Source: Escherichia phage vB_EcoM_RZ. From it: DNA of 64,000 nucleotides. Position numbers and translations under genes: made by a program. How positions within the stretch are numbered: the first letter of the stretch is position 1; the number at the start of each line of letters is the position of its first letter. The notes under the pieces were generated by a model that saw nothing but the letters and a program-made list of their open reading frames with translations, searched no databases and was not told where the DNA came from. Below are positions 2,434-8,033 of this stretch, piece after piece. The stretch lies in sequence record MW598459; one strand, 5' to 3'.

Positions 2434-3983
2434 TGACAACGACTAACACGCTAAAACACATTAGCGATAAATCCGAATATAAAACATTCGACCCGACGGG
2501 AACAGCTTTCCCGTCGACTGTTACCAACGTACAAGAGGCTTTAGGGTCTCTTAATAAAATTGCGTTAGATGGATATATCCCAGCCTCTTCCGAAACGACC
2601 GCAGGGCTCATCAGGCTAGCCACCACACAAGAAGTTATTGATGGTATTAGTCCAGACTCTGCAGTTACTCCAGCGACCTTAAAAGCTCGTTTAGACATCC
2701 CTACGCAAGCCACAGAAACTTATGTAGGTATTACCCGTTATGCAACCAATGCTGAAGCAATTGCCGGAACAGTAACCGATGCGGCTATTGTTCCATCTTC
2801 ATTAAAAGCAACAATTGATGATGTTTTTGCTGTTCGTGTCGGTACCGAAAATAATTTGGGTGTTCTTCGTATTAGTACCGAGGATGCAGCTTTAGCTGGT
2901 ACAGATGATACAACCGCTATGTCTCCGTTGAAAGTTGCTCTGGCAATTGGCAAAGCAACAGCAGCGCTTCCGACTTATTCAACTGCCACACAAACTGTTT
3001 CTGGTTTAGTACGAATTGCTACAAATGCTGAAGTGCAAGCAGGAACCCTGGGTGACGGTGTGGCAATTTCTCCAGCAGGTTTAAATGCTCGTACAGCAAC
3101 ACAAGACCGCGCTGGGATTATTCGTCTTGGTACTCAGTCAGAGATTAATAACAGTGTTGATGGTGTTGCGGTAACCGGAGCAACTCTTAATGACCGTGGC
3201 GCTACAACCGATATTCGCGGTGTTGTTAGATTAACTAATCAGGCAGGGGTTGCTCCCGGGGGTGACGGTGCTGGTGCCTTGGCTTGGAACGCTGATGTAA
3301 TTAACACTCGCGGTGGTCAACGAATTAATGGAAGTCTTTCTTTAGATTATATTTCCACCGGCAATTTTGATTCCAATACAGCTCATATGGGCGGTCAATT
3401 ACTTTCTACACAGCGTTATGCTTCTGAACGGGTTCCTGTCGGAACGGTGATGATGTTCGCAGGTGATAGTGCTCCTCCTGGCTGGATTATGTGTCATGGT
3501 GGCACCGTTAATGGTGACCAATTCCCTGACTATCGAAATACTGTTGGGACTCGTTTTGGTGGTGATTGGAATAACCCTGGCGTTCCTGATATGCGCGGCT
3601 TATTCGTTCGTGGCGCAGGTACGGGCGGTCATATTCTGAATAACCGTGGTCAAGATGGTTATGGTAAAGACCGTTTGGGTGTTGGTTGTGATGGAATGCA
3701 TGTTGGCGGTGTTCAGGCACAACAAATGTCATACCATAAACACGCTGGTGGCTGGGGTGAATATCAACGCAATGAAGCTCCATTTGGTGCGTCAGTTTAT
3801 CAGGGTTATCTTGGTACCAGAAAATATGCAGACTGGGACAATGCCTCGTATTTCACAAATGACGGATTTGAATTAGGTGGTGGTCGTGATTCTCTCGGAA
3901 CGTTAAACCGTGAAGGCCTTATCGGATATGAAACAAGACCTTGGAATATGTCTTTAAACTATATTATTAAAGTTCACTATTAA
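2433..3983 (+). CDS. 12: short tail fibre protein gp12
   Basis: 516 aa, Ala/Thr/Gly-rich repetitive fibre-like N-terminal two-thirds; position between 11 and wac; T4 gp12 about 527 aa. Confidence 0.75.
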   Translation: MTTTNTLKHISDKSEYKTFDPTGTAFPSTVTNVQEALGSLNKIALDGYIPASSETTAGLIRLATTQEVIDGISPDSAVTPATLKARLDIPTQATETYVGITRYATNAEAIAGTVTDAAIVPSSLKATIDDVFAVRVGTENNLGVLRISTEDAALAGTDDTTAMSPLKVALAIGKATAALPTYSTATQTVSGLVRIATNAEVQAGTLGDGVAISPAGLNARTATQDRAGIIRLGTQSEINNSVDGVAVTGATLNDRGATTDIRGVVRLTNQAGVAPGGDGAGALAWNADVINTRGGQRINGSLSLDYISTGNFDSNTAHMGGQLLSTQRYASERVPVGTVMMFAGDSAPPGWIMCHGGTVNGDQFPDYRNTVGTRFGGDWNNPGVPDMRGLFVRGAGTGGHILNNRGQDGYGKDRLGVGCDGMHVGGVQAQQMSYHKHAGGWGEYQRNEAPFGASVYQGYLGTRKYADWDNASYFTNDGFELGGGRDSLGTLNREGLIGYETRPWNMSLNYIIKVHY

Positions 3984-3991
3984 GGACCAAA

Positions 3992-5623
3992 ATGATTAAT
4001 AAACTCAGTCTCAAAGAACTGCCGTATAGCATCGGTATTCCAGACGAAGGCCAACAGAGAATTCGTTGGATACAAAACGGTGATTGTATGACTGCGGCCA
4101 GTACCAAATATGGTCATGATGGTAATTTGAACGCCGCCGCGGTTGGCGTTCAAACAAACGTAGATACACTCGACGACAACTCAAATACATCTAAAGAAAA
4201 AATAAACGAAATTATTGATAACGTCAATAATATTCAGGAAGCTTTGGATATAACAACTAACACGGAAGTTGTTAAACAAATTGAAAAAAACCGTACGGAT
4301 ATTCTTGACCTTGATGAACGTCAATTTAATACCGAATTACTGTCAAGCGAAACATCCGAAGGCCTTAAAACGTTAAAAGAAGATGTTGGTGCTTATGACC
4401 CGTTAACCGATTCATATTATCGCACAGTTCGTAATGACCTCGTATGGATTAAAAATGAATTAGGCCAGTATGTTGACCAAGATATAAATGGTCTCCAGGT
4501 TATCGGCAATCCGTCAAAAGGCATGAAACGCCGCATCATCGATAACAGTTCTGCTATTGTTGCTCATGGAGTTCGTATTAAGACTCTTGAGGACAATTAC
4601 CATGATTCTGATGTCGGTTCTCTTAACGTAAAAGTAATTAAAATTCGTGAAGAATTAGGTGAGTCTACTTTAGCAATAGGTAAACCGGCTGTATTTGTTA
4701 GACTGAATACTCTTGATGGTAAAGCAGTCGAAATTGACGAAGATATTACCAACATTCAAGAAGCTATTGGTTTTGGTACAGGGATTGCAATTACAACCCG
4801 CGTTGAAAATCTCGGCGGACGTGTTTCAGTCAATGAAACAGATATTGCGAATATCAAACCAAGACTCACGAAGGTTGAAACTGATATTGGAACAGCACTG
4901 GAGCCATTGACAATTAATGGTCGAATCAGTGCTTTACGCGCGGATGTCAATGGATTACAGGTTGTTGTTGGCCAGGATTCAAGTTCCGGTTTGCGTGGTA
5001 CCACTGCATGGCTTTCTCAGAGAATCGGTACAGAGCAATCTCCAGAGCCAAACACTATCACGTATAAGTTGAATGCAACCACTACGCTGGCTAACGAAAC
5101 TGCATCAGGTCTCCAGGATGTACAAGCTGAAATTGGTACAAATAACACTGGTATGAAAGGTTCTATTTTGACTTTAACTAGTCAGATGAATGGTACAAAC
5201 CCTAACGGTGCTACTGTGGCTGAACGTGGTGTTCTTCCGGTTGTAATTAACTTGGATATGCTGATGGCGTCCAAGCTGAACGATGCACCATTGGACAATA
5301 AGTTATATGGTCGCAAGCAAGGAACCTGGGCTGAAATTATCGATGCTGAAACCGAGATTGATGCAATTAAACTTGATACTGCAAAAATTGCACCATTAAC
5401 CACTCGTGTGACAACCCTTGAAGGTACAGTAACTCCGCTCCCTGGTCGCCTGGATGCGGCCGAGACGAAGATAACTACTTTAGAAGGTAAAGTATCAGCC
5501 TTAGAAACAGAGCTCGCCAAAAGGCCTCCTGTCGCTCCTGTGGCCGATGGTCTCCCGTATGTTCTAGTTGATAATGCATGGGTTCTTTTGTCAACATTCG
5601 TGACATTAAATCCAGCACCATAA
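3992..5623 (+). CDS. wac: fibritin (whisker/collar protein)
   Basis: 543 aa, long heptad coiled-coil; C-terminus GLPYVLVDNAWVLLSTF resembles the T4 fibritin foldon; followed by terminator. Confidence 0.85.
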   Translation: MINKLSLKELPYSIGIPDEGQQRIRWIQNGDCMTAASTKYGHDGNLNAAAVGVQTNVDTLDDNSNTSKEKINEIIDNVNNIQEALDITTNTEVVKQIEKNRTDILDLDERQFNTELLSSETSEGLKTLKEDVGAYDPLTDSYYRTVRNDLVWIKNELGQYVDQDINGLQVIGNPSKGMKRRIIDNSSAIVAHGVRIKTLEDNYHDSDVGSLNVKVIKIREELGESTLAIGKPAVFVRLNTLDGKAVEIDEDITNIQEAIGFGTGIAITTRVENLGGRVSVNETDIANIKPRLTKVETDIGTALEPLTINGRISALRADVNGLQVVVGQDSSSGLRGTTAWLSQRIGTEQSPEPNTITYKLNATTTLANETASGLQDVQAEIGTNNTGMKGSILTLTSQMNGTNPNGATVAERGVLPVVINLDMLMASKLNDAPLDNKLYGRKQGTWAEIIDAETEIDAIKLDTAKIAPLTTRVTTLEGTVTPLPGRLDAAETKITTLEGKVSALETELAKRPPVAPVADGLPYVLVDNAWVLLSTFVTLNPAP

Positions 5624-5648: not shown

Positions 5649-5656
5649 TATAAATA
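5649..5656 (+). promoter_or_regulatory. late promoter (TATAAATA) for gene 13
   Basis: exact TATAAATA 19 nt upstream of gene 13 ATG; T4 late promoter consensus. Confidence 0.6.
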
Positions 5657-5674
5657 CAGTAAAGAGGAAAACAT

Positions 5675-6613
5675 ATGGCAACTGAATCATACAACCCGAA
5701 ACAATTAAAAGATGCAATCCTTCGTCGTCTTGGTGCTCCAATCACGAATATCGAAGTTACGACCGAACAGGTTTATGATTGCATCCAGCGCGCATTAGAA
5801 TTATATGGCGAATATCACTATAATGGTTATAACAAAGGTTATCAGGCTTTTTATATTGGCCATGATGAAGTTTCACAGCAGAAATTCCGCGATGGCGTTT
5901 TCGATTTAAAAGGACGTAATATTTTTGCAGTAACGCAGATTATTCGTACTAATGTCGGTTCATTAACTTCGATGGATGGTCAAGCTACATATCCGTGGTT
6001 CACAGATTTCGTTCTGGGACTGGCCGGGATTAACGGTGGAATGGGTAGCTCATGTAACAGCTTTGGTCCAAATGCTTTTGGTGCAGACCTTGGTTATTTT
6101 ACACAGCTTATGCAATACCGTTCAATGATGCAAGACCTGATGGTTCCGCTGCCAGATTACTGGTATAATGACGATACTGAACAACTTAAAATTATGGGCA
6201 ACTTCCGTCAGGGAGATGTGATTGTAATTGAAGTTTACACCAAATCCTTTAATGGTGTTGATGCAATGGCCAGCAATACAGCTGGATATGGTTTTGCTTC
6301 GGCCGATTGTGATAATCCGTGGAATGCTGGTGCACAGTGGGATAACCCAGCGCGCAGAATAAGCGGTATGAGAGCCGGTGAGGACCTTGGACTTCAAGAT
6401 GGTGCATACAACAACCGTTGGGTGAAAGACTATGCCACGGCGCTCGTTAAGGAAGTTAACGGCAACGTATTGGCTAAACACCAGGGGATGATGATGCCAG
6501 GTGGTACCACGGTTGATGGTGTTCGTTTAATTGAAGAAGCTCGTATGGAAAAAGAACGGCTCCGCGAAGAACTTGACCTGCTGGATGCACCCGCTGGAAT
6601 ACTAATTGGGTGA
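5675..6613 (+). CDS. 13: neck protein gp13
   Basis: 312 aa (T4 gp13 about 309 aa); SD AAGAGGA; synteny wac-13-14. Confidence 0.8.
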
Positions 6614-6616
6614 TTA

Positions 6617-7252
6617 ATGGCTACTTACTATAGACTTTATGTATCAACATTTGAAACATCTAATGGGATAATGGTATATGGCGGTAAACGCCATTCACAT
6701 TATGAAGATTCTAAAGCGGATAGTTATTTCGGTTCTGGTACTATTGTCAAGCGAGCTAAACAAAAATACGGAAGGAAATGTTTAGTCGACATTACATGGT
6801 CTAAACCTTTTGAATCGCCTGCCCTATTAAAAGAAGCCGAAGCCTTACTAGTCAGTGAGCTTTTAGAAAGTTTTGATAATTGTGCAAATTTACATCCAAC
6901 AGGGGGAGGCGGACCAGAAGGTTATAGTTGTCCAGAAGATTCCCCTGCCTTTGGTAAAAAGAGAACAGCAGAATCAAGAAAACGAATGTCAGACGCAGCA
7001 AAACAAAGGGAATGGTCAGAAGAAGGATTAAAACGTCGTAAAGAATCAACAGCTCGAATGTGGATTGATTTTAAGGACAGACATCCAGATTTTTCTGATG
7101 ATAAAAATCCGGCCGCGCGTAAAATTATTACAGGCGACCTAGAATTTTGTACCGGAAGAAAATGTGCAGAATATTATTCGATAACACCGGCGACGGTCAT
7201 TTACAGATGTAAAAGTACAGCCGAAAAATGGAAATTATGGAATTATGCGTAA
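6617..7252 (+). CDS. GIY-YIG-like free-standing endonuclease (Seg-like) candidate
   Basis: N-terminal YYRLYV-x10-VYGGKR resembles the GIY-x10-YIG motif; [11 protein letters not shown] / [10 protein letters not shown] repeats resemble NUMOD-type DNA-binding motifs; no T4 gene between 13 and 14 as far as I recall. Confidence 0.5.
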
Positions 7253-8033
7253 TTCTTATGATGCAAGCTTATTCGCTCGGCTCGAAGATGGAACCGGGTA
7301 TGACAATACAAACTCGTCAGAGATACTCAACCAATATGTAAACTTTATGCATCATGAAAATACCCAGACTTTAGCTGATGCTATTGTTGCTGAAAGTATT
7401 CAGATGCGCGGAATGTCTCTATATTATATCCCAAGACAATTCGTTAAACCGGATTTGTTATTCGGTGAAGACCTTCAGAGTAAATTTGATAAAGCATGGA
7501 AATTTGCTGGCTATCTGGATACGTTTGACGCATATCAGGGTGATGGTTCTATCTTTAGTAAATTCGGTATGACTGTGAACGATGAAATCACAATATCGAT
7601 TAACCCTAATCTGTTTAAACATCAATGCAACGGAACCGAACCTATTGCAGGGGATTTGATTTATTTCCCTCTTGATAACAGTCTGTTCGAAATTACATGG
7701 GTGCAACCTTACGACCCATTCTATCAGGTAGGTCAAAACGCCATTCGTAAAATCACCGCGAGCAAATACATTTACTCCGGGGAAGAGCTTAAACCTGAAT
7801 TGCAACGGAATGAAGGTATTAATATTTCAGAATTCAGCGAGCTCGATTTACAACCAATCCACAATATCGATGGCCTTACAGATATCAGCGATATCCCTTA
7901 TGCTGAATCCAATGAGATTAACGCAGAAGCAGCTGAATATGTTAAACCATATTTTGTGCAGAATGGCCGTGGACTTGAGGCTCCTCCGAAGGCAAAACAG
8001 GATAGCTTTGACGATAGTTTCTTTGATGAATAA
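7245..8033 (+). CDS. 14: neck protein gp14
   Basis: 262 aa (T4 gp14 about 256 aa); start overlaps stop of preceding ORF (ATGCGTAA). Confidence 0.8.

Follow-up and report, generated by a model that had tools for sequence, protein, structure and literature searches.

The stretch of DNA analyzed here (hereafter the window) comprises 64,000 nucleotides of Escherichia phage vB_EcoM_RZ (MW598459), a Gaprivervirus (SP18/VR7 group). Between the neck genes 13 and 14, the window contains an additional open reading frame (ORF) on the same strand. The genes and the promoter that make up the locus are as follows.

5649–5656, plus strand: late promoter of the T4 type, an exact match to TATAAATA; the closest promoter ahead of all three genes listed below
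5675–6613, plus strand: gene 13 (neck protein, head-tail adaptor Ad2; PHROG 211, E = 6e-42; called gp13 in SP18 and VR7)
6617–7252, plus strand: predicted SegC-like free-standing homing endonuclease ORF (211 aa, ATG start), assigned from the PHROG match, homologues, and comparisons with SegC and I-TevI
7245–8033, plus strand: gene 14 (neck protein, head closure Hc2; Pfam T4_neck-protein, E = 1e-101)

The 211-aa ORF is present between genes 13 and 14 as originally predicted, starts with ATG, and is tightly coupled to its neighbors on both sides. On the left, the stop codon of gene 13 (TGA, 6611–6613) is separated from the ATG at 6617 by the three nucleotides TTA. On the right, the stop codon of the ORF (TAA, 7250–7252) and the start codon of gene 14 (ATG, 7245) lie within ATGCGTAA, an 8-nt overlap in which the gene 14 ATG falls inside the final two sense codons of the ORF (TAT GCG, Tyr-Ala). 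In T4, genes 13 (last base at 94553) and 14 (first base at 94555) are 1 nt apart and no gene lies at this junction, in agreement with the original prediction. No paralogue of the endonuclease was found elsewhere in the 64-kb window, and an Rfam search detected neither a group I intron nor any other known RNA. Further downstream, the mechanically called ORF of gene 15 starts at TTG (8077 of the window); the annotated start of gp15 differs between records, with a later ATG (828 nt) in SP18, P8 and DK-13 and a gene of 876 nt in VR7, VR26 and P479.

The late promoter is located 19 nt ahead of the gene 13 ATG, and no further late promoter with at most one mismatch was detected between positions 5657 and 7300. 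The endonuclease ORF has no MotA box (middle promoter), and sigma-70-like matches occur at chance level (10 found vs. 7.9 expected). Since no promoter of the late, middle or sigma-70 type was found, a promoter of its own, the absence of which had been predicted, was rejected for this ORF, which belongs to the late polycistronic transcript initiated at TATAAATA ahead of gene 13. Across the whole window, this motif occurs 19 times in exact form, compared with 4.1 occurrences expected from shuffles; 15 of the 19 are on the plus strand, 14 of these at 5.6–25 kb, which is consistent with a block of late structural genes.

A Shine-Dalgarno-like sequence, GGGUGAU (6608–6614), overlaps the gene 13 stop codon and is created by the left flanking tract typical of SP18-type phages (see below); the predicted anti-Shine-Dalgarno pairing at the endonuclease start is −10.6 kcal/mol, as against −6.3 kcal/mol for the VR7/VR26 type. 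The corresponding value at the gene 14 start, −3.3 kcal/mol, is the weakest examined, the other carriers ranging from −6.4 to −12.8 kcal/mol. Given this weak Shine-Dalgarno sequence of its own, gene 14 may need an open upstream frame, and it is probably translated for the most part by ribosomes that terminate on the endonuclease ORF and then reinitiate. A hairpin hiding the ribosome-binding site, as in I-TevI and mobE, was also considered and rejected because the folds at the two junctions are no more stable than those of shuffled sequences (z = −1.1 and +0.4).

Domain architecture of the ORF product

From its N-terminus onward, the protein has a GIY-YIG-fold domain, a linker rich in glycine, a NUMOD3-like motif and a helix-turn-helix of the I-TevI type, which are encoded as follows.

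6617–6895, plus strand: GIY-YIG-fold nuclease domain, aa 1–93
6638–6640, 6677–6679, 6839–6841 and 6887–6889, plus strand: codons of the conserved residues Tyr8, Tyr21, Glu75 and Asn91, respectively
6941–6991, plus strand: NUMOD3-like motif, aa 109–125 (Pfam PF07460, E = 0.01, 16.2 bits vs. a cut-off of 20.4)
7052–7249, plus strand: I-TevI-type C-terminal DNA-binding domain (helix-turn-helix), aa 146–211

The protein matches the PHROG family 314 “homing endonuclease” (E = 2e-29) and is homologous to T4 SegC (BLASTP, 30% identity, E = 5e-10); the Phi1 protein named SegC is 32% identical (BLASTP, E = 2e-18). T4 SegG was rejected as a relative for want of meaningful similarity (E = 0.26). When 1.8 billion representatives were searched, 7,156 relatives were obtained at E ≤ 0.001, 270 of them at E ≤ 1e-10, from which an alignment of 47 sequences was built; the profile of this family aligns with T4 SegC with a probability of 98.5 (E = 1.5e-15).

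The N-terminus had been described as a degenerate GIY-x10-YIG motif. A motif of this type is indeed present, in the form RLY (residues 6–8)-x12-YGG (residues 21–23), but its spacing is x12 rather than x10, that is, 2 residues over the canonical length. Tyr8 and Tyr21, the two motif tyrosines of the GIY-YIG superfamily, together with Gly23, are invariant in all 47 relatives, as are Asp35, Tyr37, Gly39-Ser40-Gly41 and Glu75, and Asn91 is conserved in 46 of the 47. The GIY-YIG core fold (beta-beta-alpha-beta-alpha, with a three-stranded sheet and flanking helices) is recovered, and hhalign pairs Glu75 and Asn91 with Glu75 and Asn90 of I-TevI, which correspond to the metal-binding glutamate and the conserved asparagine. 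The alignment of catalytic residues thus bears out the glutamate and the asparagine, but no invariant counterpart of the catalytic arginine (Arg27 of I-TevI) could be placed in the corresponding loop among the 47 sequences. The candidates are position 25 (Arg in 27/47, His in 19/47), Arg6 (43/47) and Lys50 (46/47); in a structure model of the protein, the helix that bears Arg27 in I-TevI is shortened.

The YGG variant had been taken as a hint of an inactivated nuclease, an interpretation that is not supported: the middle residue of the “YIG” motif varies among the relatives (A in 25, G in 14, V in 4 and I in 3), the two tyrosines, the glycine and the glutamate are invariant, and dN/dS is 0.04 (see below). 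Judging from the alignment, YAG or YGG is normal for the clade and YGG is no sign of decay.

Direct profile matches to known GIY-YIG families, to which the original prediction had looked for confirmation, were not obtained in either Pfam or NCBIfam: neither the ORF protein nor 8 close homologues match PF01541 or PF19835 at E ≤ 1, and PF19835 (SegE_GIY-YIG) is matched by 4 of the 47 relatives only, all of them more distant (best E = 5e-7). Likewise, HMMER searches of the PDB sequences with the single protein and two profiles gave no match between the N-terminal domain and any solved GIY-YIG structure, and Foldseek matched no GIY-YIG structure.

The C-terminal half had been thought to carry several basic repeats resembling NUMOD motifs; what is found is one NUMOD3-like stretch, below the Pfam cut-off in this protein and matched at E ≤ 1 by 9 of 9 close homologues (best E = 3.9e-4). 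Downstream of this element, a profile of nine homologues matches the solved DNA-binding domain of I-TevI (PDB 1i3j) over aa 146–206 (E = 2.5e-5), and 8 of the 9 close homologues match the Pfam family I-TevI_DNA-bd, so that both elements of the I-TevI-type module, NUMOD3 and the C-terminal helix-turn-helix (PF20987, PDB 1i3j), are accounted for. NCBIfam adds a weak, sub-threshold match to a group-I-intron endonuclease over the C-terminal half. With full-length I-TevI, the profile of close homologues aligns over aa 42–209 (hhalign probability 91.7, E = 8e-7); the Cys-rich segment that forms the linker zinc finger of I-TevI falls in a gap of this alignment. Together with the SegC homology, the I-TevI alignment upholds the prediction that the protein is an endonuclease of the GIY-YIG type whose DNA-binding half is of the I-TevI/NUMOD type.

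Insertion, recurrence and spread at the 13/14 junction

The region is 93–98% identical to those of the Gapriverviruses SP18, VR26, Yersinia phage P8, TH40 and pEC-M719-6WT.2, and the records of these five phages contain the same ORF, labeled either “segC” or simply homing endonuclease. The ORF, which had been treated as unusual, is real, but genes of its kind were known before and copies of it are already annotated. It is present in 7 and missing from 24 of the records that reach 90% identity or more, the latter spanning only 73% of the query because the ORF is absent. In VR7, VR20, VR25, DK-13, P479 and EAWsc9, the site is empty, and genes 13 and 14 overlap as TAATG. Such sporadic presence and absence at one locus, outside any intron or intein, is characteristic of free-standing homing endonucleases. 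Some of the annotated starts are displaced. In SP18 (GQ981382; positions 3129–3231 of the locus), gp14 is annotated from the downstream ATG at 3231 rather than from the overlapping ATG at 3129 and is consequently 34 aa short; in VR26 (KP007362; 2497–2551 of the locus), the endonuclease is annotated from an internal ATG at 2551, although the ORF is intact from the TAATG at 2497.

Comparison of the junction among relatives, which had been proposed along with the original prediction, revealed precise empty TAATG sites and a recurrence of the insertion in other genera. The empty site of VR7 reads ...GGC TAATG GCT ACA TAT GAC..., with gp14 starting MATYDANLFAR, and that of T4 reads ...TAA T ATG GCT ACT TAT GAT..., with gp14 starting MATYDKNLFAK. 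The VR26 endonuclease ORF starts at the same TAATG and reads MATY|YRLY; in the Tequatrovirus F2, a 60%-identical endonuclease starts exactly at the position of the T4 gene 14 ATG and also reads MATYYRLY. This coincidence of the endonuclease start with the ancestral gene 14 start in VR26 and F2 indicates that the insert lies after codon 4 of the ancestral gene 14 and that the endonuclease uses the old start of that gene (MATY). The replacement start of gene 14 is encoded in the last codons of the endonuclease (TAT-GCG-TAA), and gene 14 of the window begins MRNSY|DASLFAR, the first 5 codons (MRNSY) standing in place of the ancestral MATY.

The same design, in which the gene 14 ATG falls within the terminal Tyr-X codons, the two frames overlap by 8 or 14 nt and gp14 has a changed N-terminus, recurs in at least five named genera; the examples are found in Tequatrovirus (F2), Dhakavirus (MX01), Slopekvirus (phT4A), Klebsiella phage Prick1 and Krischvirus (G5211 and, more distantly, the “SegC” of Phi1). 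The endonucleases of phT4A, Prick1 and Krischvirus have a Shine-Dalgarno sequence of their own in a short spacer. Vertical co-divergence of the endonuclease with the host genes was rejected because the identities are incongruent: between G5211 and Phi1, gp13 is 98% and the endonuclease 31% identical, and between phT4A and Prick1, gp13 is 99% identical (as is gp14) and the endonuclease 74%. Since endonuclease identities do not track those of the host genes, the junction must have been invaded repeatedly. The phT4A/Prick1 pair also suggests that one endonuclease allele was replaced by another at an already occupied site. In RB49, genes 13 and 14 are separated by a 36-nt spacer (1841–1876 of the locus) that holds the hairpin GGGGGAGTATTCCCCC. 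In G5211 (1969–1985 of the locus), the endonuclease is inserted directly after GGGGGAGTATT, with GGGGGAG as the Shine-Dalgarno sequence, and the left boundary is thus unlike that in Gaprivervirus and Tequatrovirus.

Relative to the diverged VR26 allele, the endonuclease gene shows 39.5 synonymous and 7.5 non-synonymous differences (dN/dS of 0.04). It is as constrained as genes 13 and 14 and is under strong purifying selection. Its synonymous divergence between the window and SP18 is 0.038, compared with 0.28 for gene 13 and 0.22 for gene 14. Among the five SP18-type carriers, there are only 6 variable sites in 6593–7375, as opposed to about 10% variable positions in the 300 nt on either side. 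The ORF is flanked by two tracts that differ consistently between carriers and non-carriers.

6593–6616, plus strand: putative left co-converted tract, in SP18-type carriers only (not in VR26), with nine fixed differences from endonuclease-negative phages
7253–7375, plus strand: putative right co-converted tract at the 5′ end of gene 14, common to all endonuclease-positive Gapriverviruses

The fixed differences of the left flank span 6593–6614, and the tract changes the C-terminus of gp13 to APAGILIG and adds 4 nt. On the right, twelve fixed carrier/non-carrier differences are located at 7262–7334, and the first site variable among the five SP18-type phages is 7376. VR26 combines the right tract with a left flank of the VR7 type. 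The fixed flank differences and the low-diversity tract 6593–7375 are, on a comparison across genomes, those of a co-converted homing endonuclease gene: near-invariance that covers the ORF plus roughly 24 nt to its left and 120 nt to its right is the footprint expected from homing with co-conversion. Ordinary recombination in these mosaic genomes could also yield, or contribute to, short tracts of identity. Sharp mosaicism is apparent nearby, at 5200–5500 of the window (the 3′ part of wac/fibritin). This stretch differs by 31–57% from SP18, VR7, VR20 and VR25, and in the first 200 nt also from VR26, and by 1–7% from P8, TH40, M719, DK-13, P479 and EAWsc9; gene 13, immediately 3′ of it, is 0–12% divergent from all these phages.

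Interpretation and alternatives

Taken together, the observations make it likely that the ORF is a free-standing, SegC-like GIY-YIG homing endonuclease gene that homes to the 13/14 junction and to which gene 14 is translationally coupled. Under this scenario, in a mixed infection, the enzyme would bind the uninterrupted 13/14 junction in a relative that lacks the endonuclease and cut there, close by, or inside approximately the first 120 bp of gene 14, and the recombination-dependent repair of the T4 type would then copy the endonuclease gene, along with short flanking stretches, into the broken genome. A genome that already carries the gene would be protected because the insertion splits the site, because the flanking substitutions alter it, or both. 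In the resulting arrangement, gene 14 would be translated largely by termination-reinitiation at the end of the endonuclease ORF. The proximity of the cut is suggested by the shortness of the tracts and the lack of a left tract in VR26; such a cut close to the insertion would be unusual among the free-standing endonucleases of T4. A more far-reaching version, which we put forward tentatively and which may well prove too strong, is that the clade is a lineage specialized for the 13/14 junction, with a composite cassette that supplies the replacement start of gene 14, with gp14 production requiring translation of the ORF, which would serve as a retention device, and with a cut beside the insertion.

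Alternatively, the enzyme might be dead or domesticated, the ORF being kept open for the passage of ribosomes to gene 14 or retained in a DNA-binding role, for instance as a regulator. The nearly absent Shine-Dalgarno sequence of gene 14, the lack of a Pfam GIY-YIG match for the protein and the unplaced catalytic arginine would all fit this possibility, and there is a precedent in I-TevI, which doubles as a repressor (PMC2988022). Nevertheless, it appears unlikely: the maintenance of a frame selects only against stops and frameshifts, whereas the amino acid sequence here is constrained to the same degree as those of gp13 and gp14; the catalytic tyrosines, glutamate and asparagine are kept in 46–47 of the 47 relatives; the near-identical cassette in diverged backgrounds points to recent mobility; and the 64-kb window contains no operator-like copy of the uninterrupted junction, of the kind used by I-TevI, whether close to the late promoter or in any other place.

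An active nuclease could instead function chiefly in competition, excluding the markers of co-infecting relatives through one or more distant cuts, as several T4 Seg enzymes do. The cuts made by free-standing T4 endonucleases usually lie hundreds to thousands of base pairs from the endonuclease gene itself and cause marker exclusion (PMC2988022), but a distant cut requires resection up to the gene, which is difficult to reconcile with shared tracts as short as those observed on the left (none in VR26) and on the right, and the presence of diverse lineages of the family at this one junction across no fewer than five named genera speaks for site specificity; this possibility is accordingly considered quite unlikely. 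Finally, the position in the neck cluster, late expression and translational coupling to structural genes could be those of an accessory neck or other structural protein that is made late with gp13 and gp14 and lacks nuclease activity. Given that both halves of the protein match I-TevI domains, that it is homologous to T4 SegC, and that it is dispensable, being absent from most Gapriverviruses and from T4, such a role is highly improbable.

The chief value of recognizing a homing endonuclease at this junction lies in annotation: the ORF is a mobile endonuclease gene and no component of the neck, some public records mis-place the start of either this ORF or gene 14, and the endonuclease accounts for the locally odd sequence where gene 13 ends and gene 14 begins. 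The locus also provides a clean natural example of a selfish gene that invades a junction without intergenic space, takes the start of the downstream gene and brings a substitute, and different endonuclease lineages have entered the 13/14 junction time and again across T4-like genera. If gene 14 indeed depends on the coupling, this arrangement would be a simple means for a selfish gene to resist deletion.

Comparison with known systems

The protein has the architecture of I-TevI, which is encoded in the td intron of T4: the GIY-YIG domain is followed by a linker containing a NUMOD3-type element and then by a C-terminal helix-turn-helix that ends in KW.W.Y. Unlike I-TevI, the window protein is not encoded in an intron and has no linker zinc finger, no late promoter or operator of its own and no placed counterpart of Arg27. 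The likeness to T4 SegC extends from the homologous nuclease domain to genetic organization, a cassette devoid of a promoter in a late polycistronic unit that overlaps a neighboring ORF; T4 SegC is listed as an active enzyme encoded by such a cassette, and the free-standing, promoter-less lifestyle with overlapping ORFs has already been described for T4 segC and others (PMC2988022). The differences are that T4 segC is located between genes 5.1 and 5.3, that its product comprises 140 aa and lacks the I-TevI-type C-terminal helix-turn-helix, and that it has the canonical YVG and x10 spacing, in contrast to the YGG and x12 of the window protein.

The “SegC” of Phi1, a Krischvirus whose relative RB49 lacks the gene, occupies the same 13/14 site, where it was noted in 2010 as a gene unique to Phi1 (PMC2839356), and has the same two-domain layout; its stop, too, overlaps the start of gene 14 by 8 nt. 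The Phi1 protein is only 32–36% identical to the window protein, and its motif is the canonical YLY-x10-YVG. It further differs in the 66-nt spacer that precedes it (1929–1994 of the locus), which holds a sigma-70-like promoter (TTGACT, 18 nt, TATGAT), a hairpin formed by the inverted repeat GTTCTCGT...ACGAGAAC, and the Shine-Dalgarno sequence AAGGAG, none of which is found at the window endonuclease.

The closest counterpart is the “segC homing endonuclease” of SP18 (GQ981382, ADO19516.1), which is the same gene in the same place, overlaps genes 13 and 14 in the same way and is 99.5% identical in amino acid sequence. Equivalents are present in Yersinia phage vB_YenM_P8 and the Escherichia phages TH40, pEC-M719-6WT.2 (99.5%) and VR26 (96.7%). 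The copies of SP18, P8, TH40 and M719 begin with MTTY and that of the window with MATY, there being no other substantive difference, and in some records, the start of the endonuclease or of gene 14 is mis-placed. Beyond this known annotation, the detail added by the present comparison is the takeover of the gene 14 start codon by the endonuclease and the possible dependence of gp14 on translational coupling.
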